DNA of 64,000 nucleotides from a virus (taxonomy: Duplodnaviria > Heunggongvirae > Uroviricota > Caudoviricetes): the IMG/VR virus record IMGVR_UViG_3300012925_000006; one strand, written 5' to 3'. A program made the position numbers and the translations under genes. Each line of letters starts with the position of its first letter. Position 1 is the stretch's first letter. The notes under the pieces are model-generated. The model ran no database searches, was not told the origin of the DNA, and was given only the letters and a program-made list of their open reading frames with translations. Below, one piece after another: positions 1 to 64,000 of the stretch.

Positions 1-135
1 AATTGATTGATTGATAATGTAGGATGAGGAGAATGGGTCAGGGAATGGTCGGAGATTGTTGTTAGTGGTATGGGGGGATACAATGGGAGGGGATTGCGGG
101 GTCTGGTTGAAAGAGGGGGGAGGGGGGGGGATAAG
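1..135. repeat. G-rich tract (runs of G5-G9) at the window start, atypical for this AT-rich genome
   Basis: Direct reading: gggggg, ggaggggattgcgggg, gaggggggaggggggggg within 60-130; G-quadruplex potential. Confidence 0.5.
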
Positions 136-523
136 CGAAATAATTAGTTGCAATAATCTTTTGGATAAGTCAAAACTAAATATAGTTAGTGAATTGTTAG
201 GACTATTAGCTACAACGTTGTACTTTAGCATTTCAATCTATTACTTATGGCCTGGAAGAAATCGGATCCCAACGCAACAAAACATAATGGTGCCTGTTCT
301 ATGGCCTTTGGCCGGCTATCACCCCTTTGGCTGCTGCCCGCGTTGCGATGAATTACATAATGGCGCTAAGGCACGTACAGAGGGCTGGGATCAGCATAAA
401 TTCAAACTACAGCAAGAAGCCTTAGAACTGGAACGCATTAAGGCTCATTTCGCCCCGGGCGGCAGAGGATATGAATTGAATAAACAAGGATTAGGCCACA
501 CAGATACGGCATTTCAATGGTAA
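56..523 (+). CDS. Hypothetical protein; N-terminal part probably not real (lies in the G-rich tract). C-terminal half looks protein-like with a CxxC pair
   Basis: Six-frame ORF; a later internal Met is the more likely true start. Confidence 0.25.
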   Translation: MLLVVWGDTMGGDCGVWLKEGGGGGISEIISCNNLLDKSKLNIVSELLGLLATTLYFSISIYYLWPGRNRIPTQQNIMVPVLWPLAGYHPFGCCPRCDELHNGAKARTEGWDQHKFKLQQEALELERIKAHFAPGGRGYELNKQGLGHTDTAFQW

Positions 524-532
524 ATTATAATT

Positions 533-724
533 ATGGCAAGGAAATATACATATACAACAGTTGATACATTACCGGCAGGAGCCGTGACCGTTCGGGAATA
601 CTGTAATCAACGCAATTGGCCTAACGTACAGAATTTCTACAATAAGATTAAGGACGGCAAACTGCCTGAGGTAGAGATCATTCTATATTGTAATACAAAT
701 TTTGTTGTAGCAAAGGCCGATTAG
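533..724 (+). CDS. Hypothetical small early protein (63 aa)
   Basis: ORF track; ATG start with an AT-rich upstream region. Confidence 0.45.
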   Translation: MARKYTYTTVDTLPAGAVTVREYCNQRNWPNVQNFYNKIKDGKLPEVEIILYCNTNFVVAKAD

Positions 725-838
725 TGGTTTCTGGGTATTTTTTAAAATAATCACTGACATGCTTGGAATAGCCCTTACAACGTTGTACATTTGAATAACA
801 AGACAGCTAAATAGTAAATCTTTTAAAAACTTATAATT

Positions 839-985
839 ATGAAAAAGTTCAAAGTATTCAAAGTAGGCCGCAAGTCTGGTCGCCGTTCTATTCTTCGCCG
901 TAATTTGAGCGAAGCAGAAGCCCGGCAAGTGGTCAAGTCTTACCCGAATAGCAATAGGTCCATGGTGTGCTATGCGGCCCAATAA
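839..985 (+). CDS. Small basic protein (48 aa, MKKFKVFKVGRKSGRRS...), below the ORF-track size cutoff
   Basis: Read by hand: ATG 839, TAA 983-985; fits the tight spacing of the small-gene array. Confidence 0.3.
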   Translation: MKKFKVFKVGRKSGRRSILRRNLSEAEARQVVKSYPNSNRSMVCYAAQ

Positions 986-1021
986 CGTTTATATCGTTCA
1001 TTAATTAATAAATTAAAATAT

Positions 1022-1198
1022 ATGACTTACAATCAATTTCAAACACTCTGTAAAGAAGCATGGAGGACTGAAGGACAAGGCAATAGCTCAATCTGTAGGG
1101 TTCACGAATGTCTTTTAAAAGCTAAAAAACATCCTGCTCAATCCCCTAATGATGTAATAGGCATAGCATGGAAAGTATATAAGGCTCTTTATCTCTAA
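1022..1198 (+). CDS. Small hypothetical protein (58 aa)
   Basis: Read by hand: ATG 1022, TAA 1196-1198. Confidence 0.3.
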   Translation: MTYNQFQTLCKEAWRTEGQGNSSICRVHECLLKAKKHPAQSPNDVIGIAWKVYKALYL

Positions 1199-1218
1199 TT
1201 AAATTAAAAACCAATATT

Positions 1219-1548
1219 ATGAGTTACAAATGGAAGCCATCAGCAGCAAAAAAACGCGAATTTGCTGAAAGAATGTCGAATCCTGAAGAACAAGCTGCTT
1301 ATGAGGCACGCAAACGGAGCAGGATTGAAGCAAAACAGGCGACAAGTAAATTTAGTTATGGATCAGCCGGGGGCAATTACGTCCCCACCCAAGCCCAGCA
1401 TAATTTCTGCCTATCCAATTGGCCTGCAAATACCACTCCTGAACAGGAAGATGCCCGAAATCAGGTGCTATACGGCTATAGCTGTCAAGAGAAGATACAC
1501 CACGATTATATCCATATCGTTAACGAATTAATTCGCTCTATTAATTAA
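1219..1548 (+). CDS. Hypothetical early protein (109 aa, Lys/Arg-rich N-terminus)
   Basis: ORF track; ATG 8 nt after an A-rich stretch. Confidence 0.5.
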   Translation: MSYKWKPSAAKKREFAERMSNPEEQAAYEARKRSRIEAKQATSKFSYGSAGGNYVPTQAQHNFCLSNWPANTTPEQEDARNQVLYGYSCQEKIHHDYIHIVNELIRSIN

Positions 1549-1568
1549 TACTAAATACCTAATAAGTT

Positions 1569-1781
1569 ATGAAAGGATTTGACACAAAACAACAAGCTAA
1601 TACAGCGATGGAATTGGCCTTTGGTCGCATCCTTAGAATGGGAATAAGAGAGACGAAAGAAGGGGATATTCAAGAATACTTTCGGTGTAGAGACATTATA
1701 TTTGATGCTGCCGAATATCTTGGAATGGATACAGCGTCGCCTTACGAACACAACTATCAAAGAGATCGAATTAATTACTAA
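1569..1781 (+). CDS. Hypothetical small protein (70 aa)
   Basis: ORF track. Confidence 0.5.
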   Translation: MKGFDTKQQANTAMELAFGRILRMGIRETKEGDIQEYFRCRDIIFDAAEYLGMDTASPYEHNYQRDRINY

Positions 1782-1801
1782 CTAAATAAACCTTCAGTGT
1801 T

Positions 1802-1984
1802 ATGAAATATTATAAAGGAATGCCCCTGAAAGAGTTCATTTACAAAAACTATGGATTCTCATTAACCTCTCAGCAACAAGAAGAGGCGCAAGCCGATTGG
1901 GACCAATTACAAGATCCTGCATTCTATTGGGAAGATGCCCATTCTTGCTATTTGGGTGAAAACTTCATTATCTATCTTAATTAA
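1802..1984 (+). CDS. Hypothetical small protein (60 aa)
   Basis: ORF track. Confidence 0.45.
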   Translation: MKYYKGMPLKEFIYKNYGFSLTSQQQEEAQADWDQLQDPAFYWEDAHSCYLGENFIIYLN

Positions 1985-2006
1985 CTCTTATATAAATACC
2001 TCTTTT

Positions 2007-2240
2007 ATGAAATTAATTTATCTTCAAAAAACAGAACGCCCAGCATATGAGAAGGATGATCAATATAGCCTCTCCGTAGAACTACCTAGTGGGAAAATCC
2101 AACAGGTCAATTGCGAATTCAAAGACATTGAACCCATTATCTTAGAGCTTCATGGTTTAGGAATACAGGGCCACCGCAGATATGATTCCATGAATGACAG
2201 CCATTTAACTGAATGGGAAATTCCTTCTTTAACAAAATAA
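2007..2240 (+). CDS. Hypothetical small protein (77 aa). Internal Met of ORF 1935-2240 is preferred because 1935-1984 overlaps the preceding gene
   Basis: ORF track plus start re-evaluation. Confidence 0.4.
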   Translation: MKLIYLQKTERPAYEKDDQYSLSVELPSGKIQQVNCEFKDIEPIILELHGLGIQGHRRYDSMNDSHLTEWEIPSLTK

Positions 2241-2251
2241 ACCCCTCAATC

Positions 2252-2359
2252 ATGAAAAAGCCCCTTTCCATAAACATTTTACTAGTCAGTTTATTTATTG
2301 GAGTATGTATATTGGCTTATTATTTAGCTCCTCAGTTTCCTAGTATTGTACGTAATTAA
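2252..2359 (+). CDS. Very small hydrophobic protein (35 aa, MKKPLSINILLVSLFIGVCILAYYLAPQFPSIVRN), single TM helix
   Basis: Read by hand: ATG 2252, TAA 2357-2359. Confidence 0.3.
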   Translation: MKKPLSINILLVSLFIGVCILAYYLAPQFPSIVRN

Positions 2360-2376
2360 TTATAAAACAAAACATT

Positions 2377-2604
2377 ATGTCCGATTTCAAAGCAAATAAA
2401 ATAGATTCTCTCTTGAGACGCAAGAGGCGACCTACTGAATACCGTATAACATTTTGGGACCACCATGATGATTATGTGGAATACACAACAATTGTAGGAC
2501 ATAAGATAGAAGCCAGAACTGTTGCTAATCAAGTAAAGAAATCTCTTTTTAAACTTGGGGTTATCCCTGGCAATTGCAAAACAACAATAGAAAAATCATT
2601 TTGA
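2377..2604 (+). CDS. Hypothetical small protein (75 aa)
   Basis: ORF track. Confidence 0.5.
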   Translation: MSDFKANKIDSLLRRKRRPTEYRITFWDHHDDYVEYTTIVGHKIEARTVANQVKKSLFKLGVIPGNCKTTIEKSF

Positions 2605-2640
2605 TCTATTTCTCTCTCGGCCTAACCCGATACCGTTTAA

Positions 2641-2877
2641 ATGGATCGGGATTTGGCAGTAAAATTAATTAACATGAAATTTAAATTAGAAATACGGGGC
2701 GAAACCATTGGTGATATTATGGATGAGATCAAAGATGTCGAACGCCGTCTAAAATCAGAAATAGTAATGCGTACTGGAGACAATACAGGATCACAGGACT
2801 ATGTTAGCACTTTTGAAATTAGAGAAGGCAATTTATCGCACCCATTTGTATTTAAAATACCCAACCATAAAAAATAG
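2641..2877 (+). CDS. Hypothetical small protein (78 aa)
   Basis: ORF track. Confidence 0.5.
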   Translation: MDRDLAVKLINMKFKLEIRGETIGDIMDEIKDVERRLKSEIVMRTGDNTGSQDYVSTFEIREGNLSHPFVFKIPNHKK

Positions 2878-2910
2878 AAAATATTTAATAATCTATTAAA
2901 ATAAAAAACC

Positions 2911-3111
2911 ATGTTACCTTTTGATCTTGAAAAACAAATGGAGAAAGGCACTCTGCTATATACCTTCAAAGATATGTTAGAATTAATGGCTTGGGCCTCC
3001 CTTCCAGAAGATACCCGGGAGGGATATACAATTGAATATTTCAAAGAAACCTATCCAGATGTATTTGATAAGAAAATAATTGAAGCAAATAGAATACTTC
3101 AATGCGCTTAA
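2911..3111 (+). CDS. Hypothetical small protein (66 aa)
   Basis: ORF track. Confidence 0.5.
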   Translation: MLPFDLEKQMEKGTLLYTFKDMLELMAWASLPEDTREGYTIEYFKETYPDVFDKKIIEANRILQCA

Positions 3112-3136
3112 TCACTATTTACTAAAATAAACTATT

Positions 3137-3361
3137 ATGGAAAATTTAAAATCAGCCGCGTCGGGCTTTACAGCACATTTTGACGGAGAAAATACTGACG
3201 TACAATATGGATTCACCAAATTAGAAAAGGCTGCATTAATGATAGCTCAGGGAGGAGTGGCAACTTGGGATGGGAAAGACGTGGACCCCACTAATTCTAA
3301 AATTTTCGCCTCCAACTGTGTTCTTTTAGCAAAATTAGTCCTTGAAGAAGCCAATAAATAA
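3137..3361 (+). CDS. Hypothetical small protein (74 aa)
   Basis: ORF track. Confidence 0.5.
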   Translation: MENLKSAASGFTAHFDGENTDVQYGFTKLEKAALMIAQGGVATWDGKDVDPTNSKIFASNCVLLAKLVLEEANK

Positions 3362-3479
3362 ACCTTATGTACCAATACCGTAAACAATATCGTTTATATC
3401 TATTATGGCCTGGATCTCCTTCTCTTTCATTTAGAGAATGGATTTCAGTGAATTATGTTCATCTTATAAACTTATAGAA

Positions 3480-3653
3480 ATGTCAGATTTAAAAATAAAT
3501 TGGGACGCTCTTCCAGAAACAACGCAATTAGAAATAAAAATAGAACACGATATTAAGGTATTAAATATCATATTTATTGCCGTAGCGATTTTTTTGTTCT
3601 TAGCTGGAACTGCTTGTATTATTTATTCATTCTACTTAGCTAATAAGATATGA
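3480..3653 (+). CDS. Small membrane protein (57 aa from internal Met MSDLKINW...; C-terminal TM helix IIFIAVAIFLFLAGTACIIYSFYLA)
   Basis: ORF 3438-3653; internal start preferred; hydrophobic segment read directly. Confidence 0.4.
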   Translation: MSDLKINWDALPETTQLEIKIEHDIKVLNIIFIAVAIFLFLAGTACIIYSFYLANKI

Positions 3654-3838
3654 CAAAAGAAGAATTATATGACAAACATTATCAGATGCTAAATACAAAA
3701 GGGCATACTTGTATAAGTGTAGAATACGCTATCAGTGTATTAGAAGAGGTGAGCCAAACTTTGTCAAATAAATTCATGACCAAATCAGCAAAAGATATTG
3801 AATTTAAAATTCAGCAACTTAAAAAAATTATATCATGA
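3650..3838 (+). CDS. Hypothetical small protein (62 aa)
   Basis: ORF track; start overlaps the previous stop. Confidence 0.45.
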   Translation: MTKEELYDKHYQMLNTKGHTCISVEYAISVLEEVSQTLSNKFMTKSAKDIEFKIQQLKKIIS

Positions 3839-3981
3839 ATGAAAACAAAATAGAACCACTATATACAGATAATGAGCTTGTTAAATTTGGGGACTATTGC
3901 CGGTCATTCGATAGAGATCCAGTCACTACCGAAGAACTATTGAAGCTTTATATTAATACTAGGATTCCGTCAACAATTTAA
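3835..3981 (+). CDS. Small hypothetical protein (48 aa); ATGA overlap with the preceding gene
   Basis: Read by hand: ATG 3835 overlapping TGA 3836-3838; TAA 3979-3981. Confidence 0.3.
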   Translation: MNENKIEPLYTDNELVKFGDYCRSFDRDPVTTEELLKLYINTRIPSTI

Positions 3982-4000
3982 GGATAGCTGGCAATCCCTC

Positions 4001-4038
4001 AGCCCTTGGACGAAAGTTCAGGGGCTTTTTCTTTGGAG
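4001..4038 (+). terminator. Weak intrinsic terminator for the + strand early array (5-bp GC stem agccc/gggct followed by tttttcttt)
   Basis: Hairpin plus T-run read directly. Confidence 0.4.
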
Positions 4039-4044
4039 TGACCC

Positions 4045-4078
4045 TATTAAAAAAGGAGGGCCATTCCTGGCACCTCCT
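4045..4078 (-). terminator. Intrinsic terminator on the - strand (9-bp stem ggagggcca/tggcacctcc with one bulge; T-run on the - strand)
   Basis: Direct reading; tttttt follows the hairpin on the - strand. Confidence 0.55.
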
Positions 4079-4107
4079 CTAGCGTTTAGCTATTGAAAAC
4101 TGGCTTC

Positions 4108-4329
4108 TTAATTCATGTTCAGGACGGGAAATGGCGCTTTGGAAACGATTTTAGATTGCTCCTGAAGCGCTACTAATATTCTGGCTACTTGATGGGAAAG
4201 GTCTATGTTGCCCATAAATCTGACGCATACAAAGGGATCTATTATTTCATTGAGCAAATCTAGTTGAGACTGCTTGGTACAACTTTCCACCCATTTTATG
4301 AACGTGTTCGCTGTGTCGTAAAGCTCCAT
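4108..4329 (-). CDS. Hypothetical 73-aa protein lying alone between terminators
   Basis: ORF track; bracketed by - strand terminators at 4045-4078 and 4346-4380. Confidence 0.4.
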   Translation of the reverse strand: MELYDTANTFIKWVESCTKQSQLDLLNEIIDPFVCVRFMGNIDLSHQVARILVALQEQSKIVSKAPFPVLNMN

Positions 4330-4345
4330 TTTAAATGATTTTAAG

Positions 4346-4380
4346 TGATAAAAAAGACCGGCCTCTCTACAAAGCCGGCC
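4346..4380 (-). terminator. Intrinsic terminator on the - strand (ccggc/gccgg stem, 11-nt loop, T-run on the - strand)
   Basis: Direct reading. Confidence 0.45.
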
Positions 4381-4482
4381 CTCCTAAACCTTATCTATGA
4401 AAATAATCAGCGAATGATCCAGATAGCCTATAAAGGTCTCCGGATTCCAAACCTAACTGCCTTATGAGAAAAAGATAAATTC

Positions 4483-4520
4483 ATTTTAAAAAGGAGCCTG
4501 ATGGAGATCCATCGGGCTCC
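4483..4520 (-). terminator. Strong intrinsic terminator on the - strand (12-bp stem ggagcctgatgg/ccatcgggctcc with one G-U, 4-nt loop, T-run on the - strand)
   Basis: Direct reading. Confidence 0.6.
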
Positions 4521-4572
4521 ACGATAGAACCCCTTCTATCTTTAAATCGACCCTATGAAAAAAGAACTTTAT

Positions 4573-4606
4573 TTTTAAAAAAGCCGGATTACTATTTCCA
4601 TCCGGC
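4573..4606 (-). terminator. Intrinsic terminator on the - strand (7-bp stem gccggat/atccggc, T-run on the - strand)
   Basis: Direct reading. Confidence 0.55.
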
Positions 4607-4943
4607 GTAAGCCATCCTTAGTTAACATCCTTATGGGCAATCTAGGAAGCGTCCCGCTCAAACTCAGATGCTTCGCCGTGACAACTATGTAGCTATTGCG
4701 CCACGAAAGGCATCCCCTAGTTTTGGCCGGAGGAAGCTACGCCTTTATGCTCTTCAATGATTTAGCCCTGCTGGATGATCTCCCCCACATCCTACATATC
4801 CCTTATTCATGCTACACCCACTGCGATCAGTAGCACAAGAGGCAAAGAATAAAGTTAACAAAATAATGCAGAATAGCTTAGTGATTGTTTTCATCTTGTA
4901 TTTTTTAGATGTTTTAAAAGAGGGTTACGGATGGCCTTTCATT

Positions 4944-5240
4944 TTAATCAATCCCAATATCTGCTGTGTGTTCAGAGGGGATTGTGCTGGCTGTGATCAT
5001 GTAGGCCGCTTCCGAAAATTGCTTATCGCTTACATTGTCCTTTGAAATTTCAAGATAATCAAACAATCCCAAGACTCTTGCACTTCCGTTATTCCACATG
5101 TTTTTGAGGGCCTTGGCAATAAGTCTTTCATGTGATCCGTCAAAGCCATTCAGGATTGCCTCTATCGCTACATTTGGAATTGTAATATGCAAAAGTTCGT
5201 GCATTAATTCATTCCTTACTATAGGGGTTGATGTTTTCAT
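4944..5240 (-). CDS. Small protein (98 aa) with an HExxH motif (NELMHELLHI); possible minimal zincin-like metallopeptidase
   Basis: HELLH read from the translation; last gene before the terminator cluster. Confidence 0.4.
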   Translation of the reverse strand: MKTSTPIVRNELMHELLHITIPNVAIEAILNGFDGSHERLIAKALKNMWNNGSARVLGLFDYLEISKDNVSDKQFSEAAYMITASTIPSEHTADIGID

Positions 5241-5500
5241 AACTTCATGATTATTGATTTTGAAGCATCTTCCATGCCTAGAAAGTAGTTTGCACTATCT
5301 TTATAAAGATGCGCTTTTTCGTTATTGGTTGGCAAGTATTTATATCCCGAATCAATACATCGATTAAAATTACTGCTTGCTTCATTGAATTCACCACGCG
5401 CAATTTCAAAGGCATCCTTCTTTGGCTTTGGTTCTGGCTTTGGCTCTGTACAAGAAATAAACAAAACGAGAAAGATGACTATAGGGGTTGTATTTTTCAT
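5237..5500 (-). CDS. Small lipoprotein (87 aa; signal peptide then Cys, ...VLFISCTEPKPEPKPKK)
   Basis: Hydrophobic N-terminus, lipobox-like ISC, Pro/Lys-rich linker. Confidence 0.5.
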   Translation of the reverse strand: MKNTTPIVIFLVLFISCTEPKPEPKPKKDAFEIARGEFNEASSNFNRCIDSGYKYLPTNNEKAHLYKDSANYFLGMEDASKSIIMKL

Positions 5501-5506
5501 GGCTAC

Positions 5507-6382
5507 TTACTTTATATTGAATAATGCGGAACCTCCTGTCATGTAGGTTGGTAGCTTACCGTCCCATTTTTCAGCCTTCACTAATTCGATGTAGTTGGGA
5601 GAGGCGCTTAATACTTGCGTCTTTACCTTAATTACTTCGGCATCAGCAAGGGCATTGATTACCTTAGACGCGCTATCTCCCCGGGCTGTTGCTATTAATT
5701 TATTGGCTTCGGCAATAGATTGCTGCAATTGCATCTTAGAGGTTTCGGCATCTTGCTTAGCCTTGATCTTTGCATTAATGGAGGCCGCAAGATTTGAATC
5801 ACTTGGAATAGGTTGTTTTGTGATATTGAAATTATCTACAATGAATCCCTCTTTCCCTAGCCTTTCTGTTAATGTGGCAGCAACGGTATGCTCGTAATAA
5901 GGAAGGTTATTTAATACAGAATCTACGGTCATGGTGCCTGATAAATCCTGCATAGTTCCTCTTACTACATTCCTAAGATAAGTACTTGTGATCCTATCAA
6001 GATCGTCTGTTCTATACTTTAGGTAAATTTTGCTAGCCTTGTTTGGATCAACTCGATAATTAAAGCCAATATCCATTTTAAATCCCGCGCCACCCAAACA
6101 AGATACTGTAATTTGCTGGCCTGTAGAGGCCCCTTCGCCGCCCTCTTCGCTCCAAACTACATGCTGTTAGGTAGTTGGAAGCGTTACAATGTAAGAAAAC
6201 CCGGGGAAAACGAAATTATATCCTGTGATAACAGGCAGACTATCAACGCCCCTATAATCCCCGGAATTACTTATTTTAAAGCCCACCTCCGTGGGGCTTA
6301 CCCGGTGACACCCCAAAAATATGAAAATAATGAATAAAACGGCTATCACTCCGGCGATGGTAATTGTCGATACTGATTTCAT
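5507..6382 (-). pseudogene. SPFH/band-7 (stomatin/HflK/C-like) membrane protein split by one in-frame TAA (6167-6169) into a 71-aa N-terminal TM part and a 196-aa C-terminal part
   Basis: N-terminal TM helix then RVSPTEVGFKISNSGDYRGVD...; C-terminal Ala/Gln-rich coiled region typical of SPFH; both ORFs are in the same frame (coordinate arithmetic verified). Confidence 0.6.
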
Positions 6383-6576
6383 TTCTGTTTTATTTTTTTA
6401 ATTAAGAAAAGAATTAAAGCCGCTATCATCAAAACAATAATAATAAGGCCGAATGTATTTTCGAAGGTTGATCTAGTACTCATTAAATGAAAAGATATAT
6501 CTGTTATCCAAAATACTGAAATAAATGCGAAAAGAACTATAAAAACAACGGCTATATCTTCAAAGTATTTTTTCAT
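6379..6576 (-). CDS. Small two-TM membrane protein (65 aa); start overlaps the SPFH gene
   Basis: Two hydrophobic segments and a basic C-terminus (KKIKQK). Confidence 0.5.
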   Translation of the reverse strand: MKKYFEDIAVVFIVLFAFISVFWITDISFHLMSTRSTFENTFGLIIIVLMIAALILFLIKKIKQK

Positions 6577-6577
6577 G

Positions 6578-6739
6578 TTACCGGCTTATGTAATCGTATA
6601 AATTATCGTATTGCTCAATAAACTTTTCTATTTCCGTAGCCAATGATTTTTTATTCTTCTTTGCAAATCGCATGGCATTTTTGTACGGGGCCTCCTTCGC
6701 TTTATAAGTTCTTACTTTTCTTTTTTCTGCCGTTTTCAT
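6578..6739 (-). CDS. Small basic protein (53 aa, MKTAEKRKVRTYKAKEAPYKNAMRFAKKNKK...); its TAA abuts the next ATG
   Basis: Read by hand; stop-start junction taacATG. Confidence 0.3.
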   Translation of the reverse strand: MKTAEKRKVRTYKAKEAPYKNAMRFAKKNKKSLATEIEKFIEQYDNLYDYISR

Positions 6740-6846
6740 GCTGTAAAGGTAATACGTATATCCATACTTCCAAATTTATTTTTAGGAAAATGAAAAACCC
6801 GCCTTACAGGGCGGGAAACTAAACAGTATATATGGAACAGAAAATA

Positions 6847-7380
6847 CTAAGATTCGTTCCTAGATAAAGCGCCTGAACTTGAAAGGATTACTTTACGGAC
6901 ATTAGCGGGTTGGATTGTATATAATGGACGGCGCACTCCTACAATCCTCTCTTTTGCAATACGGGCTATGTCATGCATATCTGATTGATTCCCACCCAAT
7001 CCGTGATAGGCTTCCGAATCTTCCCCTACATATTGTGTAACATGCCCTCCTCCTGATCGTTTAATTACCAATACATCACCTAACATAGCCAAATTAATAG
7101 GTATTTCAATTCCCCAGTGAAGCCATTCCAGTGCCGAAAGTAAGAGATTTGGATTGAATGGATGTCCGGCACGTTTTGCTACTATTCCCATGTCCAAACC
7201 GCACCAAGGGACAGAATCTGCCCCGTACCAGGATATTCCTAGTTCTTTAGCCCATCCCATTATGGCCGGATTGTCGCCGTTCCCTTGTACTTCTTGAACT
7301 CCATATAATTTAAGGGATTCCAAAAGCATTTTAGGCCCCGGTTCACTGAGAAGCCACTTGTATTGATCAGGCAAAGTCAT
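6847..7380 (-). CDS. Putative endolysin: CHAP-like / TIGR02594-type peptidoglycan hydrolase (177 aa)
   Basis: Motifs QGNGDNPAIMGW, VPWCGLDMG (candidate catalytic Cys) and GGGHVTQYVG (candidate His), as in CHAP/TIGR02594 phage hydrolases; sits inside a holin-like gene cluster. Confidence 0.6.
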   Translation of the reverse strand: MTLPDQYKWLLSEPGPKMLLESLKLYGVQEVQGNGDNPAIMGWAKELGISWYGADSVPWCGLDMGIVAKRAGHPFNPNLLLSALEWLHWGIEIPINLAMLGDVLVIKRSGGGHVTQYVGEDSEAYHGLGGNQSDMHDIARIAKERIVGVRRPLYTIQPANVRKVILSSSGALSRNES

Positions 7381-7490
7381 TGTTGAAATAGTTTATAATA
7401 TCCATATATAAATAAACAGATAGTTAATGCCATAAATAAAATCACAGCCAAGCATCCAATAATTACTTTATCTTTCTTGGGCCGATTCAT
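7377..7490 (-). CDS. 37-aa single-TM protein (MNRPKKDKVIIGCLAVILFMALTICLFIYGYYKLFQQ); its TGA overlaps the endolysin ATG (ATGA)
   Basis: Read by hand; translational coupling to the endolysin. Confidence 0.35.
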   Translation of the reverse strand: MNRPKKDKVIIGCLAVILFMALTICLFIYGYYKLFQQ

Positions 7491-7633
7491 AGAATCTTCT
7501 TAATAGCATCTTCAGCAGCTTTTAGGCGTGCTTCGAATGCTTTGAATTTTTCAGAATGCAGTCCTTGTGTTGATAAAAGAGTGGCGACAGTGCCAACTAC
7601 AATTCCTATGATTAACCATACATACCAAGCCAT
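7487..7633 (-). CDS. 48-aa single-TM protein with an amphipathic tail (MAWYVWLIIGIVVGTVATLLS...); ATGA overlap with the next ORF
   Basis: Read by hand. Confidence 0.35.
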   Translation of the reverse strand: MAWYVWLIIGIVVGTVATLLSTQGLHSEKFKAFEARLKAAEDAIKKIL

Positions 7634-7644
7634 ATGTTTTTATT

Positions 7645-8316
7645 TTATTTATGAGCAATTAAAAGAAAAGCTAATACCCCTGCAATTCCTGTTCCCAGTT
7701 TCGCCCAAAGATCCGCTAATTTGGCCCTTTTTACCGCTTTGTTGGCAGCTTTAGCCTGAGCCGAAGCGTTATCGGTAGAAAGCGTGAGAAGTGTCTTGAA
7801 TTGATCTATTTGTTTCCCCAATTCGATAATAACGACGTTCAGCCGGGCTATTTCTGCATCTTTGATGTTACCTATACTATCTTGCGCTATCTGTAAATTG
7901 AAGTTCTGTTGATTCAATTCGGTCCATTGATTCTTTAATTCAGTATATGCAGCTAAGAGTGCTACAGTATCTTTATTGTCGTAAAATTCTTTTAACTGCT
8001 TATATAAGATTACTACACTATCCTTAGTTATCTTGGTTTGCCCTTTTAAGATAGAAATTACATGAGATTGAGAGTCAATTTTATGCTTATACAAACTATC
8101 TCCAATCACCTTGGCCGTAATCAGGGAATCGTTTGATTTTGCTATGACAGTAGCGCGTCCTTTTATCGAATCATTTTTTTCCTTGTACGAATTAAGTGAA
8201 TCTTGTATTATCTGAATACTTGATCCCTTTCCGCATCCTTTGAAAATATAGAATACCAAGAAAATGGCACAAAGGATTACAATTCCACCAAATACCCATT
8301 TAGCTATTTTGCTCAT
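7645..8316 (-). CDS. N-terminal TM anchor plus long coiled-coil protein (223 aa); lysis-cassette membrane protein, possibly spanin- or antiholin-like
   Basis: Hydrophobic N-terminus, GCGKGSS after the TM, heptad-rich remainder; adjacent to holin-like genes. Confidence 0.45.
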   Translation of the reverse strand: MSKIAKWVFGGIVILCAIFLVFYIFKGCGKGSSIQIIQDSLNSYKEKNDSIKGRATVIAKSNDSLITAKVIGDSLYKHKIDSQSHVISILKGQTKITKDSVVILYKQLKEFYDNKDTVALLAAYTELKNQWTELNQQNFNLQIAQDSIGNIKDAEIARLNVVIIELGKQIDQFKTLLTLSTDNASAQAKAANKAVKRAKLADLWAKLGTGIAGVLAFLLIAHK

Positions 8317-8558
8317 GATTTAGGGAGTTGATTTGTATCTTGTACGGTCAATTTGCTGATAATACCCAGCGTCAAACCGGCTGTAATTGCATATCCTCCC
8401 AATGTTGTGACAATTGCCGGAATATGAGCCGAAGCGATTGCAGGAGTGGCCGTTGCCGCTATCCCGGTTGCAGTTAGTGTTACTCCAAGATTCTGTAATT
8501 TTTTAAAAAACTTAGGGCTTTCAGCGGACCACCTTGCAGATATTTCAGACCATCTCAT
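8313..8558 (-). CDS. Holin-like small membrane protein (81 aa, two predicted TM helices)
   Basis: Two Ala/Gly/Thr-rich hydrophobic stretches; overlaps the next gene by 4 nt. Confidence 0.5.
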   Translation of the reverse strand: MRWSEISARWSAESPKFFKKLQNLGVTLTATGIAATATPAIASAHIPAIVTTLGGYAITAGLTLGIISKLTVQDTNQLPKS

Positions 8559-8559
8559 G

Positions 8560-8832
8560 TTATTGTTTTTTATTGTTTTCTAAAGCTGTTATTCGTTGTA
8601 GTAATCCACTAATAGAGATATCGTTTGCATTTAAATGGAGCGAATGATCTCTTTGTTGAGCTTGAATTGTATTGATATTATCGGAATTATATCCCGTTGA
8701 CACTTCCATTCTGGCTACTCTGGAATCTAAGCTATTAAGTTCCTTTGCTCCCCACAATACTCCTGCCGTACAAAGACTAAGAAGTGTTGTGGTTAACATT
8801 TTATACCCAGATTCTTTTTGTGGAGTTGTCAT
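8560..8832 (-). CDS. Small TM plus coiled-coil protein (90 aa), holin/antiholin-like
   Basis: N-terminal hydrophobic helix, C-terminal ...LLQRITALENNKKQ. Confidence 0.45.
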   Translation of the reverse strand: MTTPQKESGYKMLTTTLLSLCTAGVLWGAKELNSLDSRVARMEVSTGYNSDNINTIQAQQRDHSLHLNANDISISGLLQRITALENNKKQ

Positions 8833-8863
8833 TGCTTTTATATATAAAAATAGTGTTTTTTAT

Positions 8864-10537
8864 TTAATTCGCTATCAGCCGCTGTCCCGGGCTATATTGG
8901 ATCACATTTGGAGGCAGCATAGTGAATGCAATTGTTACTGAATCACTTTTAAATCCATTGTCGGTTACTAATTCTTTAAATGAATATTGTCCCACAGGAA
9001 AGTTTTTTATTCTATTTGTTTTACCAGATCTAATCCCTAAAGAAACTGATGTTCCTGACATTTGGGTTATTAAATATGACATCACAAATACGTCGTCTGT
9101 ACTACCTGAAGCATCCCATACTAGATCATATCCATCCTGCCTTAAAGTTAATGCGGCTGTCGGCCCTGTGTTGGCAGGAATAGAATATGTATTGCAGGGA
9201 GTTCCGGAAGGATTTAGAATACAATATGGGCTTGTACTTTGAATATAAGCTAAAGCAGGGTCTGGGAACTGTTGAGTAATCCAAGGAATAGACCAGGAAT
9301 CTGGATATTGCGCTCCTATTCCTCCGTTCACTGGATTGGCCCCTATAATTCTATTTACTAACGGACCGAATTTATTTCTTCCCCAACTATAAAAATTTCC
9401 CAAGGAATCATTTCCATATGCAAACCAACTATTAGAAGGGGCAGTATTAACGGACATCCAATCCCTTTTTCCGGGGACTGGCTCTACTGGCACTATCTGC
9501 ATATGTTCATGAAACCCATTATCATAGTTATATGGTGCCGGAGATCCAGAGCTGGGACCGGGACAACATTTATATGCTCCCCAATCCAACATGTCTCCAT
9601 TGCCTATTGTCCCACAAGAATTGTCTCCCCATGACCACAAGGCTCCTGTCGTTAATATTGCATACGTGGTGGATGAATTTATCGATAATGATTTAGGGAA
9701 TGCCGGCAGCCCCAATGCTGATGTAATATCCTGAAATGAGCGTGTCATTGCTGTTGGATAGATGGCTATATAATCGTTTAAGTTTTGCTGACCAGTTGCC
9801 AAAGTATGTCCATTATCCAGCAATATTTCATTTATCAATCCATTCCCGGCAATGTCTGTTGCTGTTCGTCCTACTCCCAAAGAGATCAATGTTGGGGTGG
9901 TGGCTGCTGTGGTAGTTCCTTGCCCATTTATATAGCCGTCCCTATCGGCTCCCCATGTATATATATGGCCTAGTGAAGTCTTTGCAAGCATCCCATAACC
10001 ACCTTGGATCTTTGTAACTAACTCTCCACCCACATTTATTTGCACCCATCTTGTATTAACCGCAGTGCCAGCCGTCCCATCTCCTATTACATAGGATTCA
10101 AGCTCTCCAGCCCCATAAAGTTTGCCTGTGCTTGTAACTGCAAAAACATTCCAGAAAGCTCCCTTATTTGCATTTCCACTAAGATAAACTTGTATAACAG
10201 GATCAAGCGTGCCACCTAAGTTATCGGTCATGCATATGACAAAACTATTTTGATCTGTTTGTGTTCCATTTGGCACAACGCCATTTGGATTCTGCCCTTT
10301 GCAATATACGTTTCCTAAGTTGTCAATTAAACAAGCACTATGAGGCCCTCCAGCGACAAAAACAACATTGGTGGGGCTGGAAACAATCGTCGGTACAGCA
10401 TTATCAATTGTATAAGCCCGATGTGTGGAAGTATTCAGCAATAAATTAACATATTCCCCCGGAGATCCTAACCATTGAGAGTATGTCTTATACGAAAGAC
10501 AAATAAGAAAGAAGGATATGTATAATATATACTTCAT
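8864..10537 (-). CDS. Secreted RCC1-like repeat (beta-propeller) protein, 557 aa; possible receptor-binding / host-surface-interaction protein
   Basis: Signal peptide MKYILYISFFLICLSYKTYSQ; repeated GxxYxWG motifs (LGHIYTWGADRDG, ALWSWGDNSCGTIGNGD, NFYSWGRNKFG) typical of RCC1/BLIP-II repeats. Confidence 0.65.
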   Translation of the reverse strand: MKYILYISFFLICLSYKTYSQWLGSPGEYVNLLLNTSTHRAYTIDNAVPTIVSSPTNVVFVAGGPHSACLIDNLGNVYCKGQNPNGVVPNGTQTDQNSFVICMTDNLGGTLDPVIQVYLSGNANKGAFWNVFAVTSTGKLYGAGELESYVIGDGTAGTAVNTRWVQINVGGELVTKIQGGYGMLAKTSLGHIYTWGADRDGYINGQGTTTAATTPTLISLGVGRTATDIAGNGLINEILLDNGHTLATGQQNLNDYIAIYPTAMTRSFQDITSALGLPAFPKSLSINSSTTYAILTTGALWSWGDNSCGTIGNGDMLDWGAYKCCPGPSSGSPAPYNYDNGFHEHMQIVPVEPVPGKRDWMSVNTAPSNSWFAYGNDSLGNFYSWGRNKFGPLVNRIIGANPVNGGIGAQYPDSWSIPWITQQFPDPALAYIQSTSPYCILNPSGTPCNTYSIPANTGPTAALTLRQDGYDLVWDASGSTDDVFVMSYLITQMSGTSVSLGIRSGKTNRIKNFPVGQYSFKELVTDNGFKSDSVTIAFTMLPPNVIQYSPGQRLIAN

Positions 10538-10540
10538 TAA

Positions 10541-11092
10541 TTATGGGGACATAAATTTGTCAGCTATACCCTTGTATTTTTTCTTAGCTTTAACTAAATA
10601 AGTATCAGTATTTTTATGACATGCATTACAAAGAGTTCGTCCATTATTTACATTAAATCTTTCTTCAGGGAAATAAGCAAATGGTTTAATATGATCTGCC
10701 TCTAAATGGCCGGATACTTTTTCTTTTTCACCACAGATTAAGCAAGTATAGTTATCTCTTTCAAATACAGTCTTTCTCCAAATTTTATATTCTATAGATT
10801 TCCTAATTGTTTCATTTATTGATGTTACTCCCCCTTTCCAATTAACATTCTTATCTCCTTTATGATGTATCCCTCTTTTTATTCTAGATTCTATAGAATA
10901 TTTCTTTCCACTAGCAGCTTTAGACATTTTTAAAATAGCTTCCGGAGTATGCCCGATATTATTGTGCCCTTTATTGTGTCCATGAATAAATATCCTTTTT
11001 CTTCCCCTGCTATCTGTTGAATTGAATTCATTATCGCATCCACAAGCACAAATAATAGTTATTCCTAAATTATGCGTTCTTTCCCTTCCCAT
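10541..11092 (-). CDS. HNH endonuclease (183 aa) with an N-terminal Cys cluster
   Basis: C-terminal CLICGEKEKVSGHLEADHIKPFAYFPEERFNVNNGRTLCNACHKN matches the HNH motif (His-Asn-His, CxxC pairs). Confidence 0.8.
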   Translation of the reverse strand: MGRERTHNLGITIICACGCDNEFNSTDSRGRKRIFIHGHNKGHNNIGHTPEAILKMSKAASGKKYSIESRIKRGIHHKGDKNVNWKGGVTSINETIRKSIEYKIWRKTVFERDNYTCLICGEKEKVSGHLEADHIKPFAYFPEERFNVNNGRTLCNACHKNTDTYLVKAKKKYKGIADKFMSP

Positions 11093-11101
11093 TTTAAAAA
11101 A

Positions 11102-14100
11102 TTATGGAACCAAATTCCAATCAAATGAAACTGTACCTGTCAATCCGGCCAAATATGTCACATCAAAAGTTGTTGCTGTTTTATTAGTGACATAAAAAAG
11201 AGCAGCCGATAAAGCACTTGTTGGAGTAACATTTACTTTATAGGTACTATTTGATTCCGTTTTTCCAATTGTTACTGTAAACGTTGTAGTAGCTGTCCCA
11301 ACCTGAGAAACACTTCCAGAAGCATACCCTAAGTTAGATGCGCTTTCCAATATCCAATTAGTGCCATTATACACCAACGTATAGGTCACTCCATTGGGAA
11401 TTGCTGTCACCGTATTCCCTAGATTATCCTTCACCGTTGTTGCAAATGTCCAAGCGAATGCAGAAGTATTAGTATTGAAAATAGTCTGGGTATGGCCGGT
11501 ATTTGTAAATGGTATAGTCAAGGTTCTATTGGCTGTTATTACAGGAAGGTAAACATTGAATGACCCTACGGAGACGGTGGTATTTGCATCTGTAGCTGTA
11601 AGTCCAGAATACTGAGGAGTCCCATATAATGCCAATGTTCCTACAGGAGCCCCTATCGTTATATTGTCGTTTGATCTAATATCCACTTCCCCCAAATTAC
11701 TCGCATTTGTTCCAAGTTCTAATTTGAAAGATCCCCCTGCAATAGCCGTTGGCTGAATCAATGTTCCGCCCCAATAAATACTGTCAGTTGTTGGCGCTCT
11801 AAGACCATTGGCTACCTTTAAATTGAATGTTCCGGATTTTCTATGCGTTTGCCCAGTTGTGGGGTCTACTGTTACGATACTATCATTCGCTCCTGAACTT
11901 GTCAACCCAGTCAGCAACGGTGTTGCTATAGACGGAGAAGTCCCAAATACCAATGGTCCAGTTCCCGTTTCATCAGATATGACTCCTAACAATTGTGCTG
12001 ATGTAGTAGAAGCGAATTGCTGCAATCCTGTTAGTTTATCTGCTACTGTTATATTAGCGTCTGGGAAAGTGGCTGTTCTTGTAGTAGCTGTAGTAATAGA
12101 AGCAGCACTTAGGATAAGCAACTTGGTAGCATCTGAGTTGTTTTTAACTAATGCGGCATTATCCGCAAATGGAGGTGCGCTTCCAGCACCCGCATTAGCT
12201 CTATGCCAACTTCTTGTTGCAACTGTATCTCTTATGGATGCAGAAGAATCTATTATCCAAAGTCCTGTATTGTATTGCATTTGTCCGGCTACAGGAGTAG
12301 TAGTCGGAGGTCCTGCTGTAAATTGTATTGGCGCAAATCCTGCCGTGGCAGTTCCAGCCGAAAGTGTTAGCCACGCACTTCTGGTAGCATTTCCTATTGA
12401 AGTTTTGCCGTCGAATCCAACAGAAAATTTTGCGACATTAGCATTACATGCCTTAAAGAGAGGCATAGTGCTTACAGTTCCATTCACCGATAGTAATGCG
12501 CTGTAATAAGCTACATCAAAATCTGATCCAGGTGCGACGCTATATAACATTCCGGCTGCGGTTCCACTGGTTCCTTTATAATACCATACCGGATTCATAT
12601 CAGTGAAATTCCCAGATAATGTCCCAAATGAAAGATGAGCCGCCGCATATCCAGTTTGTCGGTTATACAGATTAAAAAGTCCGCTAGAACTAGCTACTAT
12701 TTCAGGACCACTAAATGCCAGATTCATTGTAGAATAGCTCTGTCTTGCTTCTCCGCGCACTCTTCCGATTGGGACCAATAATATTTCTAAAGATGATCTT
12801 TGTTCTAAACTATCAAAATGGGCATACTGAACTATAATATTTCCTTTTGTGGAATCATAGAATATTGACGGTTCAAAATAAGTACTGGCGCTATCTGATC
12901 CCAATAAACTGAATAGGGTTCTCCATTGATTTCCAAGACTAAGGGCATTATTTGGCTGATTAAAATCATAATCTTTAGTGCTAGTCAGTAAATCTAAATA
13001 TTTTCTTTGTGATTGTTGAGTAGCCCCCCCCACAGCTTTATTTGCTACTCCTATCATCCAATGCTGTCCATCAATAACAGCTACAGCCGGTTGAGAATAA
13101 GGCGTAGGCATTCCCATATTATAAGAACCCGTCCATGTAGCTCCATTATCTATAGATTGTGCTCCCCACATTTCATATTGAACATTAGTAGAGAACCCAT
13201 ATCTAATAAATTCCCCCGCAGCCTGTGTATCGGGTGTACGTTGCACTATATACATTAAAGGTTCATTCACAACACTATCAGGTGATGTGAATATTTGTGC
13301 AGATAGAGTCCAAGTGACTCCATTATCATCGGAATACATAAATCTTCCTCTAAAATAAGCCAATGACCGGTTAGTGATTTGCCCCAATGGAAAGAACAAT
13401 CGACCAGTTAATTGAGATCTAATAATCCTGTCACCGGAAGAATACCAATATGTACCCGATGCGCTTACTAGCGAATCTACGAATGTAAAATTATTTCCCC
13501 CATTCGTACTTTTCCATCGACAGATAGTACTTTGTAATGGAGTGGTTAAATACTTATTGTTAGTGAAGCAATATATATTACCATTGCCATCATTGTACAG
13601 ACTAGGAGTATTTGTATTTTGTGTAATATTCGGTATTCTTAATCTATTATTTACCCACGTTAGCCCATTATCTCCAGAGGTGGCTCCCCATATATTAGAT
13701 GGCCCTACATCACTTACATTGGAAGTATTAGAATTAGAATATAAAATCAACAAGCTATCTTTGCTTAATCTAATTATTGAACTTTGGTCCATTCGCCAGT
13801 GATTATTTACTGTATCAATCGCTTGAACTACTATTTTCTTAATCACATAAGGTTCAATTTTATATTTTCTAACACCGCTAGTATCTGTTCCATATACTTG
13901 ATAAGGTGGTGGAGTGGCAAGATCATTAACCAATTGCAAAGGAGTTCCAGATGATCCATTTCCTGTTATTGAATTTTGAGAGGTAACCGTTCCAGATGGA
14001 GTAGGAATATTTAATACTCCCGCTACAATGGACGCCGCTCCCGATCCAGTAGTTGTCAAGGAAACATCCGCAGCATTCCCAGATCCATCGTATCCTAACA

Positions 14101-55783: not shown

Positions 55784-57766
55784 TTACTGTCTTTTTACTA
55801 TTATTTCATTAATTAGTTCCCCCATTGTCTGATTTGATTGATCAGTCAAATTAGTGAACTGTATTTGTTTAAGTCCTAATTCCAGATAAATTTCAGTCAT
55901 TGTTGGATCAAACTGAGTAGTATTGTTAATATCGAAATTAACGTGACTTCTAAGCGCATCTTCAAAAGGATGGATAGCAACATGATCCTTTTGATCCTCT
56001 TCTTTTGGTGGTGCATATCTTGACTGCATAAGAGATAATCCATCTTGCTTGGCTTTAGCATTACTCTGAGATACGCCATACAATCCATCTTCTCCTTTCA
56101 TTAAAAATCCCAACATTCCGGCATCTCTAAAATCTTCATATACATGGGGGACACTCCTTTCATGCATACAAGGATACCCCATGAACTTACAGGCTTTTAT
56201 TATTTCTTTATTTACTTCTCTTGGATCATCCGGCCTCCATAATAAAAAAGCAACTTTTTCGTCTATAGCTCCTGTATTATAATAGTCTAGTTTTTTATGC
56301 CCCATGAGACAAGCCTGAGAAATATTACTACTGCTAGTAAGTAATTTTGGATAATTAATAGGATCATATCCGAAACACCCTTCCACATTGACAACAGGAA
56401 AAAACAATCCACCTCTTTTTATAAACCTGTTACTTAAATTTACTCCTTTTTCGAGTGAAAAATAAGGATCTACGGACCATAACCAAGGTCCGGTATCACT
56501 CGCCTCTCTATATATCTTTCCTTCTTTTTCTATAAGGATACTACGTACATATGGCCTATTTCTTGGCAACAATCCCTCTATTCCGTCTATCCTATTTTGC
56601 ATTCTTATCTTTGGAAATATTGTAGAGGTTGAGGAAGATAGCAACGCATGTTCCTTGACTAAAGGAAGTTTGTATAAACTGAAGATATGTTCCTTTGTTC
56701 CTTTCTGATATTTATTATGTTCATTTTGAATCCATGCTTCGGCCCTCTCTTTATCCACGATGCCGAATTTATCTGTATACTCTTTAGGAACGTACTGAGA
56801 ATGGATAGCAGAAATAAAATACTCCCAGTTTCCGGATACCGTCTTTCCAAACTCATCTTTTCGTAAAGGATTTGAATTGGCTATAAGTTTATGCCAATCC
56901 ATTGTAGCTTTAGCGGCATCCTTGGAATCACCCGAAGAACTCAGGCAATCAATCATCCCTTGTTTTCTGAAGTTCTGAACAACCTTTTTATTGACCTCAA
57001 ACATTTCATAAGGACTAGTATCTTCTACCTTCGAAAATTCATCAAGAATTGATTCTATTGCCTCTAATCCGTCCGTGGCTTTAGCGGTCGTAGGGAATAT
57101 ATTAATTTTACCTCCCATCCATTCTTCTCCTTCCTCCTGAATCATATTGGACGTTAATTCAAGGGCTTTCCTTGGCTTCTTTCCGTTGGGAGCATAATAG
57201 TCTTCCCGCATCCATTTGGGTCTTCTGGAATAGCTGTCAATGATCGGAACCATATAGCTTGCTTGGGCCTTATCTCTAGTATCACTCTGAATCGTTACAT
57301 AATTGGAAAAGTCACTGAGCATTTTATACTGAGAGAGGGAACACATGATAGTTGTCATTTTAGCCCGGCGTGGCTTTATCCATGTTCTTCCGGTACATGC
57401 GGCCTCTTTTTCTGTCAAATCGATAAAATAGAAAACATTTCGCTCGTCGTCGAAATACATCAGTTTGGCAGAATTATAGGTACAGTATGTTAAATGATCA
57501 TAATTCAGGCCCGTCATGTATTTTAACTCACCATTTATGAGTATAAAAACCCCCTCTATCCATCGTTGCCGTTCCCTTTCAATATATTCAATTCGATCTT
57601 TGGCAGACATCCTTTTTACATCCATAATGGGAGGAGTACGCCAAAATTGATCGTTTTTTTTATGCTGATAATTTAGAATGAGCTTTTCATCTGAAGGCTC
57701 CTTGATAGGTACAACATATTGATATAGGCCATTTTGAAGAGTAAGTATTGTTTCGCTGACAGCCAT
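55784..57766 (-). CDS. 660-aa protein at the expected large-terminase position
   Basis: Gene order only; no canonical Walker A found by eye (only a doubtful ..KPRRAKMTT..); function unconfirmed. Confidence 0.35.
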   Translation of the reverse strand: MAVSETILTLQNGLYQYVVPIKEPSDEKLILNYQHKKNDQFWRTPPIMDVKRMSAKDRIEYIERERQRWIEGVFILINGELKYMTGLNYDHLTYCTYNSAKLMYFDDERNVFYFIDLTEKEAACTGRTWIKPRRAKMTTIMCSLSQYKMLSDFSNYVTIQSDTRDKAQASYMVPIIDSYSRRPKWMREDYYAPNGKKPRKALELTSNMIQEEGEEWMGGKINIFPTTAKATDGLEAIESILDEFSKVEDTSPYEMFEVNKKVVQNFRKQGMIDCLSSSGDSKDAAKATMDWHKLIANSNPLRKDEFGKTVSGNWEYFISAIHSQYVPKEYTDKFGIVDKERAEAWIQNEHNKYQKGTKEHIFSLYKLPLVKEHALLSSSTSTIFPKIRMQNRIDGIEGLLPRNRPYVRSILIEKEGKIYREASDTGPWLWSVDPYFSLEKGVNLSNRFIKRGGLFFPVVNVEGCFGYDPINYPKLLTSSSNISQACLMGHKKLDYYNTGAIDEKVAFLLWRPDDPREVNKEIIKACKFMGYPCMHERSVPHVYEDFRDAGMLGFLMKGEDGLYGVSQSNAKAKQDGLSLMQSRYAPPKEEDQKDHVAIHPFEDALRSHVNFDINNTTQFDPTMTEIYLELGLKQIQFTNLTDQSNQTMGELINEIIVKRQ

Positions 57767-63928: not shown

Positions 63929-64000
63929 TTTTGTATTTATTGGCTGTTTGTTCTGAGGAGAATTGAATAAATCCTTTAGCTGGCGAATGATCCTGCCATG

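Follow-up and report, generated by a model that had tools for sequence, protein, structure and literature searches.

The analysed DNA, hereafter the window, is a 64,000-nt stretch in which the minus strand from 6382 to 5507 forms one 291-codon frame (MKSV...YIVTLPTT*QHVVWSEEGG...LFNIK*) with a single internal stop. According to Pfam PF01145, phrog_200, and the homologues described below, this frame (5507..6382, minus strand) represents an SPFH/Band_7 (prohibitin-like) lipoprotein gene that is broken at codon 72 by a premature TAA (6167..6169, minus strand), with C as the following base (6166). The natural terminator is a TAA as well (5507..5509, minus strand), and homologues share the C-terminus ...FNIK. 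The frame is thus divided into a 71-aa ORF starting with ATG (6167..6382) and a 196-aa ORF downstream of the stop (5507..6097, minus strand) that starts with TTG at 6097..6095 and has neither the signal peptide nor the first SPFH strands. Gene callers annotate this C-terminal piece as a protein of either 196 aa or 189 aa (ATG start). The sequence-only reading of this DNA had already placed the 71-aa and 196-aa ORFs in a single frame with the TAA at 6167–6169 between them, which is confirmed on the minus strand. The length of 267 aa that it gave for the full-length product, however, omits the 23 codons between TAA and TTG. These are conserved as coding sequence across the family and are part of the gene, and a read-through product would therefore have 291 aa.

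The window also contains a terminase large subunit (55784–57766) and RCC1/PKD tail-fibre-like genes. Upstream of the SPFH gene, on the same strand, there are small membrane proteins and a TIGR02594-family protein (6847..7380, minus strand; 86.8 bits compared with a cutoff of 70.55), which corresponds to the lysozyme end of phrog_1259 and is likely a cell-wall hydrolase (endolysin). The earlier placement of the SPFH gene beside a lysis cassette is borne out by these neighbors: in this uncultivated Bacteroidota phage, the gene comes last in the late/lysis block. Three related loci (L003, L004, and L008) share the gene arrangement tail fibre, small genes, lysin, small TM genes, SPFH. The immediate upstream neighbor is a 65-aa protein with 2 TM segments and a charged KKIKQK tail (6379..6576, minus strand), the stop of which overlaps the SPFH start (ATGA). 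Its homologues directly precede the SPFH gene in 6 relatives with 35–82% identity (L003 9823–10008, L004 9820–9972, L006 3–155, L008 9820–10002, L046 2819–3007, and L047 2757–2936). The match of this protein to the Pfam PspC/LiaI TM region is weak (2e-4, below the cutoff). Together the 65-aa protein and the SPFH protein look like a conserved two-gene cassette, in which the former is a candidate holin-like or NfeD-like partner.

Downstream of the SPFH gene, the window encodes 2 small predicted lipoproteins on the minus strand: an 87-aa one located immediately after it (5237–5500, ...LFISC-TEP) and a 46-aa one (4754–4894, ...FFASC-ATD), the latter having weak homologues downstream of SPFH in L003, L006, and L008. 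Both may be spanin-like or other envelope proteins, and the nonsense mutation in the SPFH gene might affect their expression through polarity. A terminator-like GC-rich hairpin with a T-run follows the TIGR02594 hydrolase gene (6798–6815, minus strand), which suggests that a 53-aa gene, the 65-aa gene, the SPFH gene, and the small lipoprotein genes may form their own transcription unit. A promoter/terminator scan of 3800–9000 yields counts at or below those expected from shuffled sequence, this hairpin being its one notable item. As for nucleotide similarity, the only detectable stretch within the 11.5-kb locus L008 is the SPFH gene itself (L008 10085–10840 compared with window 6295–5540, 79%), while the tail-fibre and lysis genes beside it are too diverged from the window to be found by blastn. 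The SPFH gene is either under unusually strong constraint or exchanged among these phages. Two further observations concern more distant genes. An HNH endonuclease (Pfam HNH, 2.5e-7) is encoded at 10541–11092 (minus strand) between large tail-fibre-like genes, in a region where 4 consecutive genes (776, 1386, 183, and 557 aa) share one frame, each TAA being followed by a start a few codons on. On the same contig just past position 64000 (L009 8443–8986), small adjacent genes carry precomputed Pfam matches to Acb2_Tad1_hairpin and Tad2-like, and are candidate anti-CBASS or anti-Thoeris sponge proteins of the phage early region.

When the 2 pieces are joined through the stop, the resulting protein matches Pfam Band_7 (PF01145) with an E-value of 3.4e-19 and 70 bits (cutoff 23.6). 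The alignment covers residues 27–226 and profile positions 2–172 of 176, and is continuous through the stop, whereas the C-terminal piece alone reaches 49.7 bits and covers profile positions 52–172 only. PHROG phrog_200, annotated as "lipoprotein", matches residues 5–286 of the joined protein (profile positions 80–351 of 379) with an E-value of 2.8e-53. A tblastn search with the joined protein matches 815 phage records, 587 of which have at least 80% of the query in one place, and among the matches listed each alignment is a single piece spanning residues ~25–287. A large protein collection contains 354 homologues with E-values of at most 1e-10; the full-length ones have 283–308 aa, and the best are 84–92% identical and 288–291 aa long. 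Among the 120 of these 354 that were listed, the sole short entry is P0058, which is the 196-aa fragment of this very genome. A Band_7 match that spans the stop, single-piece tblastn alignments, and uninterrupted homologues together show that the 2 ORFs originate from one SPFH gene. In public records, the annotation of separate 71-aa and 196/189-aa "genes" should accordingly be corrected to a single SPFH lipoprotein gene in 2 pieces.

Scans of the joined protein against PADLOC and NCBIfam give no match, and it is thus neither a known defence-system component nor a named equivalog. In particular, no HflK/HflC equivalog model of NCBIfam/TIGRFAM matches it, and the name "HflC" occurs only as a JGI COG-style label. 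The paired K/C arrangement is absent at the locus, where the gene is single with no adjoining paralogue, and no FtsH or NfeD partner gene is seen near it. Modulation of FtsH by the phage SPFH protein, which was suggested in the sequence-only reading, is speculation. The window protein falls within a subgroup of Bacteroidota phages with members known from metagenomes and MAGs only, and its closest genomic homologues are located on Bacteroidetes MAG contigs. Since blastn of positions 5000–7500 against cultured phages yields no DNA-level match, the phage has no annotated close relative.

The N-terminus of the protein consists of a hydrophobic stretch (residues 8–23) followed by L-G-C25. Because this stretch ends in Cys25, which is invariant in 46 homologues, it is a predicted lipoprotein signal peptide (residues 1–24, 6308..6382, minus strand, ...IFIFLG-C-HRV) with the lipobox cysteine encoded at 6310..6308. 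Phrog_200 and many of the GenBank phage homologues are likewise annotated as lipoprotein. The initial description of this segment as a plain TM anchor is therefore replaced by that of a signal peptide. The next part of the protein is the SPFH domain (residues 27–226 in the Pfam alignment, 5705..6304, minus strand), within which the stop falls, followed by a long C-terminal helix, the counterpart of the coiled-coil element of SPFH proteins (residues ~196–260, 5603..5797, minus strand) suggested by Foldseek matches and by the structure model. The latter is an AlphaFold2 model (pLDDT 76.5) of P0001, a homologue with 92% identity that stands in for the window protein. In the model, the signal peptide forms an N-terminal helix, which is followed by the beta-rich SPFH domain and by helices including a long one at residues 193–257. 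Strands 60–66 and 70–74 of the model flank Q69, which is equivalent to codon 72 of the window, so the stop lies inside the SPFH domain.

A Foldseek search of the P0001 model against PDB retrieves prohibitin, HflK/C, stomatin, erlin, flotillin, and QmcA–YbbJ with a probability of 1.00 and E-values from 3e-12 to 1e-7, the alignments spanning 246–305 columns. TM-scores to prohibitin, HflK/C, stomatin, erlin, and QmcA range between 0.45 and 0.61, and prohibitin is also retrieved (1e-4) when PDB sequences are searched with the profile. SPFH proteins build membrane-attached rings or cages, in which the long helix serves as the ring- or cage-building coiled coil. By analogy, the conserved long helix suggests that the phage SPFH lipoprotein may also form a ring or cage.

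This architecture bears on whether the gene has been split into 2 working products, namely, a 71-aa lipoprotein stub and a separately started cytoplasmic fragment of 196 aa (TTG 6097) or 189 aa (ATG). Such a split would be consistent with the in-frame TTG and ATG after the stop and with the annotation of both pieces by gene callers. According to the model, however, the stop falls between 2 strands of one sheet, and neither piece would be a complete fold; the C-terminal piece without a signal peptide would also reside in the wrong compartment, the 23 codons separating it from the stop are conserved as coding sequence, and none of the 44 related loci described below is split. As it lacks the signal peptide and the first SPFH strands, the 196-aa piece is probably non-functional, and the 71-aa product should be non-functional as well. 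We thus regard 2 working products as extremely unlikely, and the separate expression from TTG 6095–6097 that the sequence-only reading had left open is not supported.

With tblastn, which does not depend on gene callers, the gene was compared among 44 related loci taken from IMG/VR, from GTDB genomes, and from look-ups. None of the 44 has an in-frame stop within the gene. In the protein alignment, the stop falls on the first Gln of the PTT-Q-QHVVW motif, which is at least 90% conserved. Among the 43 loci that cover the site, 34 encode Gln (CAA or CAG), 7 Met, and 2 Ala or Val. According to the codon alignments, the 5 nearest relatives, which include an NCBI MAG contig (L003), a contig from JGI 3300049433 (L004), and 3 Logan contigs (L005, L006, and L008), all have CAA in place of the window TAA. 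The comparison with orthologs thus reveals a sense codon at the position of the stop in 43 of 43 covering loci and CAA in the 5 nearest, as one would expect if a sense codon had been lost in the window only. Given these codons, the stop is a private change produced by a single C>T transition at 6169 of the minus strand (G>A on the plus strand), replacing the ancestral CAA (Gln). The only broken relative, L035 (IMGVR_UViG_3300009430_000009), is affected at a different site: at 3460–3480 it has a frameshift in an A7 run (GGGAAAAAAATTAG), so that the gene there is a pseudogene or, alternatively, the homopolymer was misread in sequencing.

The TAA is present in several public records. In JGI 3300015054, it is found in a 78,811-nt contig and in 2 short redundant contigs (L001 and L002, contigs 1155977 and 1155980), which differ from the window solely by homopolymer indels at their tips. 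A 1635-nt JGI contig encoding P0124 likewise duplicates the SPFH region of the long contig. The existence of several short duplicates suggests that the phage was very highly covered in the sample or is micro-heterogeneous there. The stop is also present in the ENA contig ERZ27253145 k141_2950566 (78,847 nt, MEGAHIT-style), which is 100% identical to positions 1..11548 of the window; the window starts at position 19 of this contig, on which gene calling divides the SPFH gene into 71 aa and 189 aa. A further entry, under SRR5882762, contains the truncated 189-aa form. Since the JGI, ENA, and SRR5882762 records are probably derived from one sample, their agreement represents reproducibility across assemblers rather than biological independence. 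As for other alleles, the homologue search of the protein collection returned no intact one with more than 92% identity. Exact-pattern scans of viral_contigs and metagenome_contigs with a 27-mer that spans the stop, its mutated base set to N, matched nothing, the source contig included, and so recovered no allelic variants.

These records bear on whether the TAA is an artefact, or a minority variant raised to consensus, in a genome that truly carries CAA and an intact gene. Several facts are in line with such an error: the sequence is a metagenomic contig, the short redundant JGI contigs with homopolymer indels at their tips indicate error-containing or heterogeneous reads over the region, the sequence downstream of the stop is perfectly intact, the A7 frameshift of L035 shows a lesion in the family that could itself be an error, and the JGI and ENA records may share reads and thus lack independence. 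However, the change is a substitution outside homopolymers and recurs in the long JGI contig, 2 short JGI contigs, the ENA contig, and the SRR5882762 entry, with no intact allele closer than 92% identity in the protein-collection search. The other genes of the 64-kb window are unbroken and its long ORFs are intact, which argues for a good consensus. An intact gene behind an erroneous stop is consequently an unlikely explanation. Of the 2 causes named in the sequence-only reading, nonsense mutation and sequencing error, the mutation is favoured, while a pure assembly artefact seems less likely than that reading allowed because the TAA recurs in JGI, ENA, and a third catalogue entry.

The remainder of the gene shows no sign of decay. 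With regard to columns conserved in at least 90% of 46 homologues, the window protein retains 129 of 130 (all 24 upstream of the stop and 105 of the 106 from there on), the only miss being the stop itself, and many intact family members miss more such columns. Beyond the TAA at codon 72, the SPFH gene contains no further stops or frameshifts. Synonymous sites, in contrast, are saturated: 119.8 of 146 differ from L006, and dS exceeds 1 versus the nearest relatives. Downstream of the stop, dN amounts to only 0.016–0.11. The conservation of the 219 downstream codons despite synonymous saturation implies purifying selection for essentially the whole history of the lineage, and, together with the 129 retained columns, it implies that the lesion is very young. 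As a rough estimate, zero changes at ~240 constrained nonsynonymous sites place the stop below ~1% of neutral divergence, unless the stop is unreal or read through. A comparison of dN/dS gives no date relative to a sister lineage, as synonymous sites are saturated with respect to every relative compared. Continuity of homology, CAA in close relatives, and the absence of further decay thus agree with the earlier diagnosis of a recent nonsense mutation or error in one gene.

The same integrity of the 219 downstream codons is what continued translation would yield, and it is the sole observation that would favour an expression-tuning allele. In that reading, a near-cognate or suppressor tRNA-Gln of the host would decode UAA-C, through leakiness or as a programmed event, and a little full-length periplasmic lipoprotein would be produced in addition to the 71-aa stub. 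Cases are known from other phages in which stop-codon recoding is concentrated in late and lysis genes. TAA-C is a comparatively weak termination context; among natural TAA stops of the window it is rare (3 of 47), and the ancestral residue, Gln, is inserted by known stop reassignments, both of which are compatible with readthrough. If readthrough did occur, the mutation would tune the expression of a membrane scaffold associated with lysis instead of creating a null. On the other hand, the TAA-C context is as expected for a stop newly arisen from CAA-CAG, and CAA>TAA is the most trivial one-step path to a stop. A programmed signal would be conserved, whereas this stop is unique: it occurs in 0 of 44 loci and in none of the 120 listed homologues save the genome's own fragment P0058. 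The RNA fold around it is no stronger than that of shuffled sequence (z = −0.59), and relatives do not retain the small hairpin whose loop contains the stop.

Stop usage in the window also speaks against reassignment. In a simple set of non-overlapping ORFs, TAA terminates 47 of 71, followed by TGA (20) and TAG (4), which confirms the earlier statement that TAA is the ordinary stop for most genes here, the SPFH gene included. The standard code gives unbroken, very long ORFs of 2619, 1585, and 1386 aa, and no other interrupted gene is found within the 64-kb window. The other coding-strand ORF pairs that share a frame and are separated by a single stop are ordinary abutting genes, the second start being at most 6 codons past the stop in all but one pair. 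ARAGORN detects no tRNA genes, either within the window or along the contig as far as 73,248 of 78,847. Since TAA is a normal terminator, no tRNA is found up to 73,248, and no other gene is broken, genome-wide recoding or phage-encoded suppression is unlikely. A stop-codon-recoded genome was thus rejected, having one in-frame stop in 64 kb, no depletion of TAA as terminator, and no tRNA up to 73,248. A programmed readthrough site was rejected as well, as the stop is not conserved and relatives all carry a sense codon. Programmed readthrough, raised in the sequence-only reading, consequently finds no support: the stop is unique among 44 loci and ~350 proteins, TAA terminates the same gene, no tRNA gene is found, and the fold is ordinary. 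Readthrough in either form, leaky or programmed, appears very unlikely.

Based on the above, the TAA is quite probably genuine and represents an ordinary, very recent nonsense change (CAA>TAA) by which an accessory phage gene for an SPFH lipoprotein became a null allele. The Gln codon 72 would have passed from CAA to TAA by one C>T transition, and translation would stop after 71 residues, leaving, after cleavage, a lipopeptide stub of ~47 residues that comprises three or four beta-strands. The remaining SPFH domain and the oligomerising helix would not be made, so that the gene would be knocked out, and the phage would tolerate the mutation because the gene is accessory. Three points here are inferences, namely, the presence of the allele in the reads, the lack of any full-length product, and the dispensability of the gene. 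The allele suggests that this widespread gene can be lost while the phage still reaches an assemblable abundance, in keeping with an accessory role. Should the phage be cultured, the natural null allele could serve as a comparison point. The role of phage SPFH lipoproteins, a strongly conserved family found very widely (815 phage records), is a more interesting question than the stop itself. A literature search for their experimental function found none; their role has been called unclear (PMC13239085), and control of lysogeny has been proposed speculatively (PMC10269572).

Among known systems, the closest are the phrog_200 phage lipoproteins, which include those of Pseudomonas D3112-like phages, Stenotrophomonas phages Pokken and Piffle, Erwinia vB_EamP-S6, Klebsiella KB57, and Vi01-like gp200. 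They have the same size as the joined protein and 28–35% tblastn identity to it over ~90% of the length, and are recorded as "lipoprotein" in many cases, or as "prohibitin family protein". What sets the window gene apart is its premature TAA. The function of phrog_200-type proteins is still unassigned in the literature (PMC13239085, PMC10269572). Staphylococcus phages form the largest group of tblastn matches (275 records). In Kayvirus (Staphylococcus phage K-like phages), the lysK–tgl lysis region encodes MbpS, an SPFH-domain membrane protein (PMC7150955), for which the proposed role, an aid to Sec-dependent export of Tgl, is speculative. It resembles the window protein in domain and location, as both are SPFH proteins in or next to a lysis module and by a small holin-like membrane protein; the host of the MbpS phages, however, is Gram-positive.

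As for cellular proteins, the modelled structure resembles prohibitin PHB1/2, HflK/C–FtsH, QmcA–YbbJ, stomatin, erlin, and flotillin in the succession of N-terminal anchor, SPFH domain, and long helix. In contrast to these cage-forming SPFH proteins, to which its identity is 12–18%, the phage protein has a predicted lipidated Cys anchor instead of their TM helix. With regard to the lesion itself, the allele is similar to ordinary nonsense pseudogenes of phage accessory ("moron") genes in that it consists of one transition in an otherwise unbroken gene, is lineage-specific, and has no accompanying signal. No feature distinguishes it from them, and it appears to have been caught very early, before other decay.
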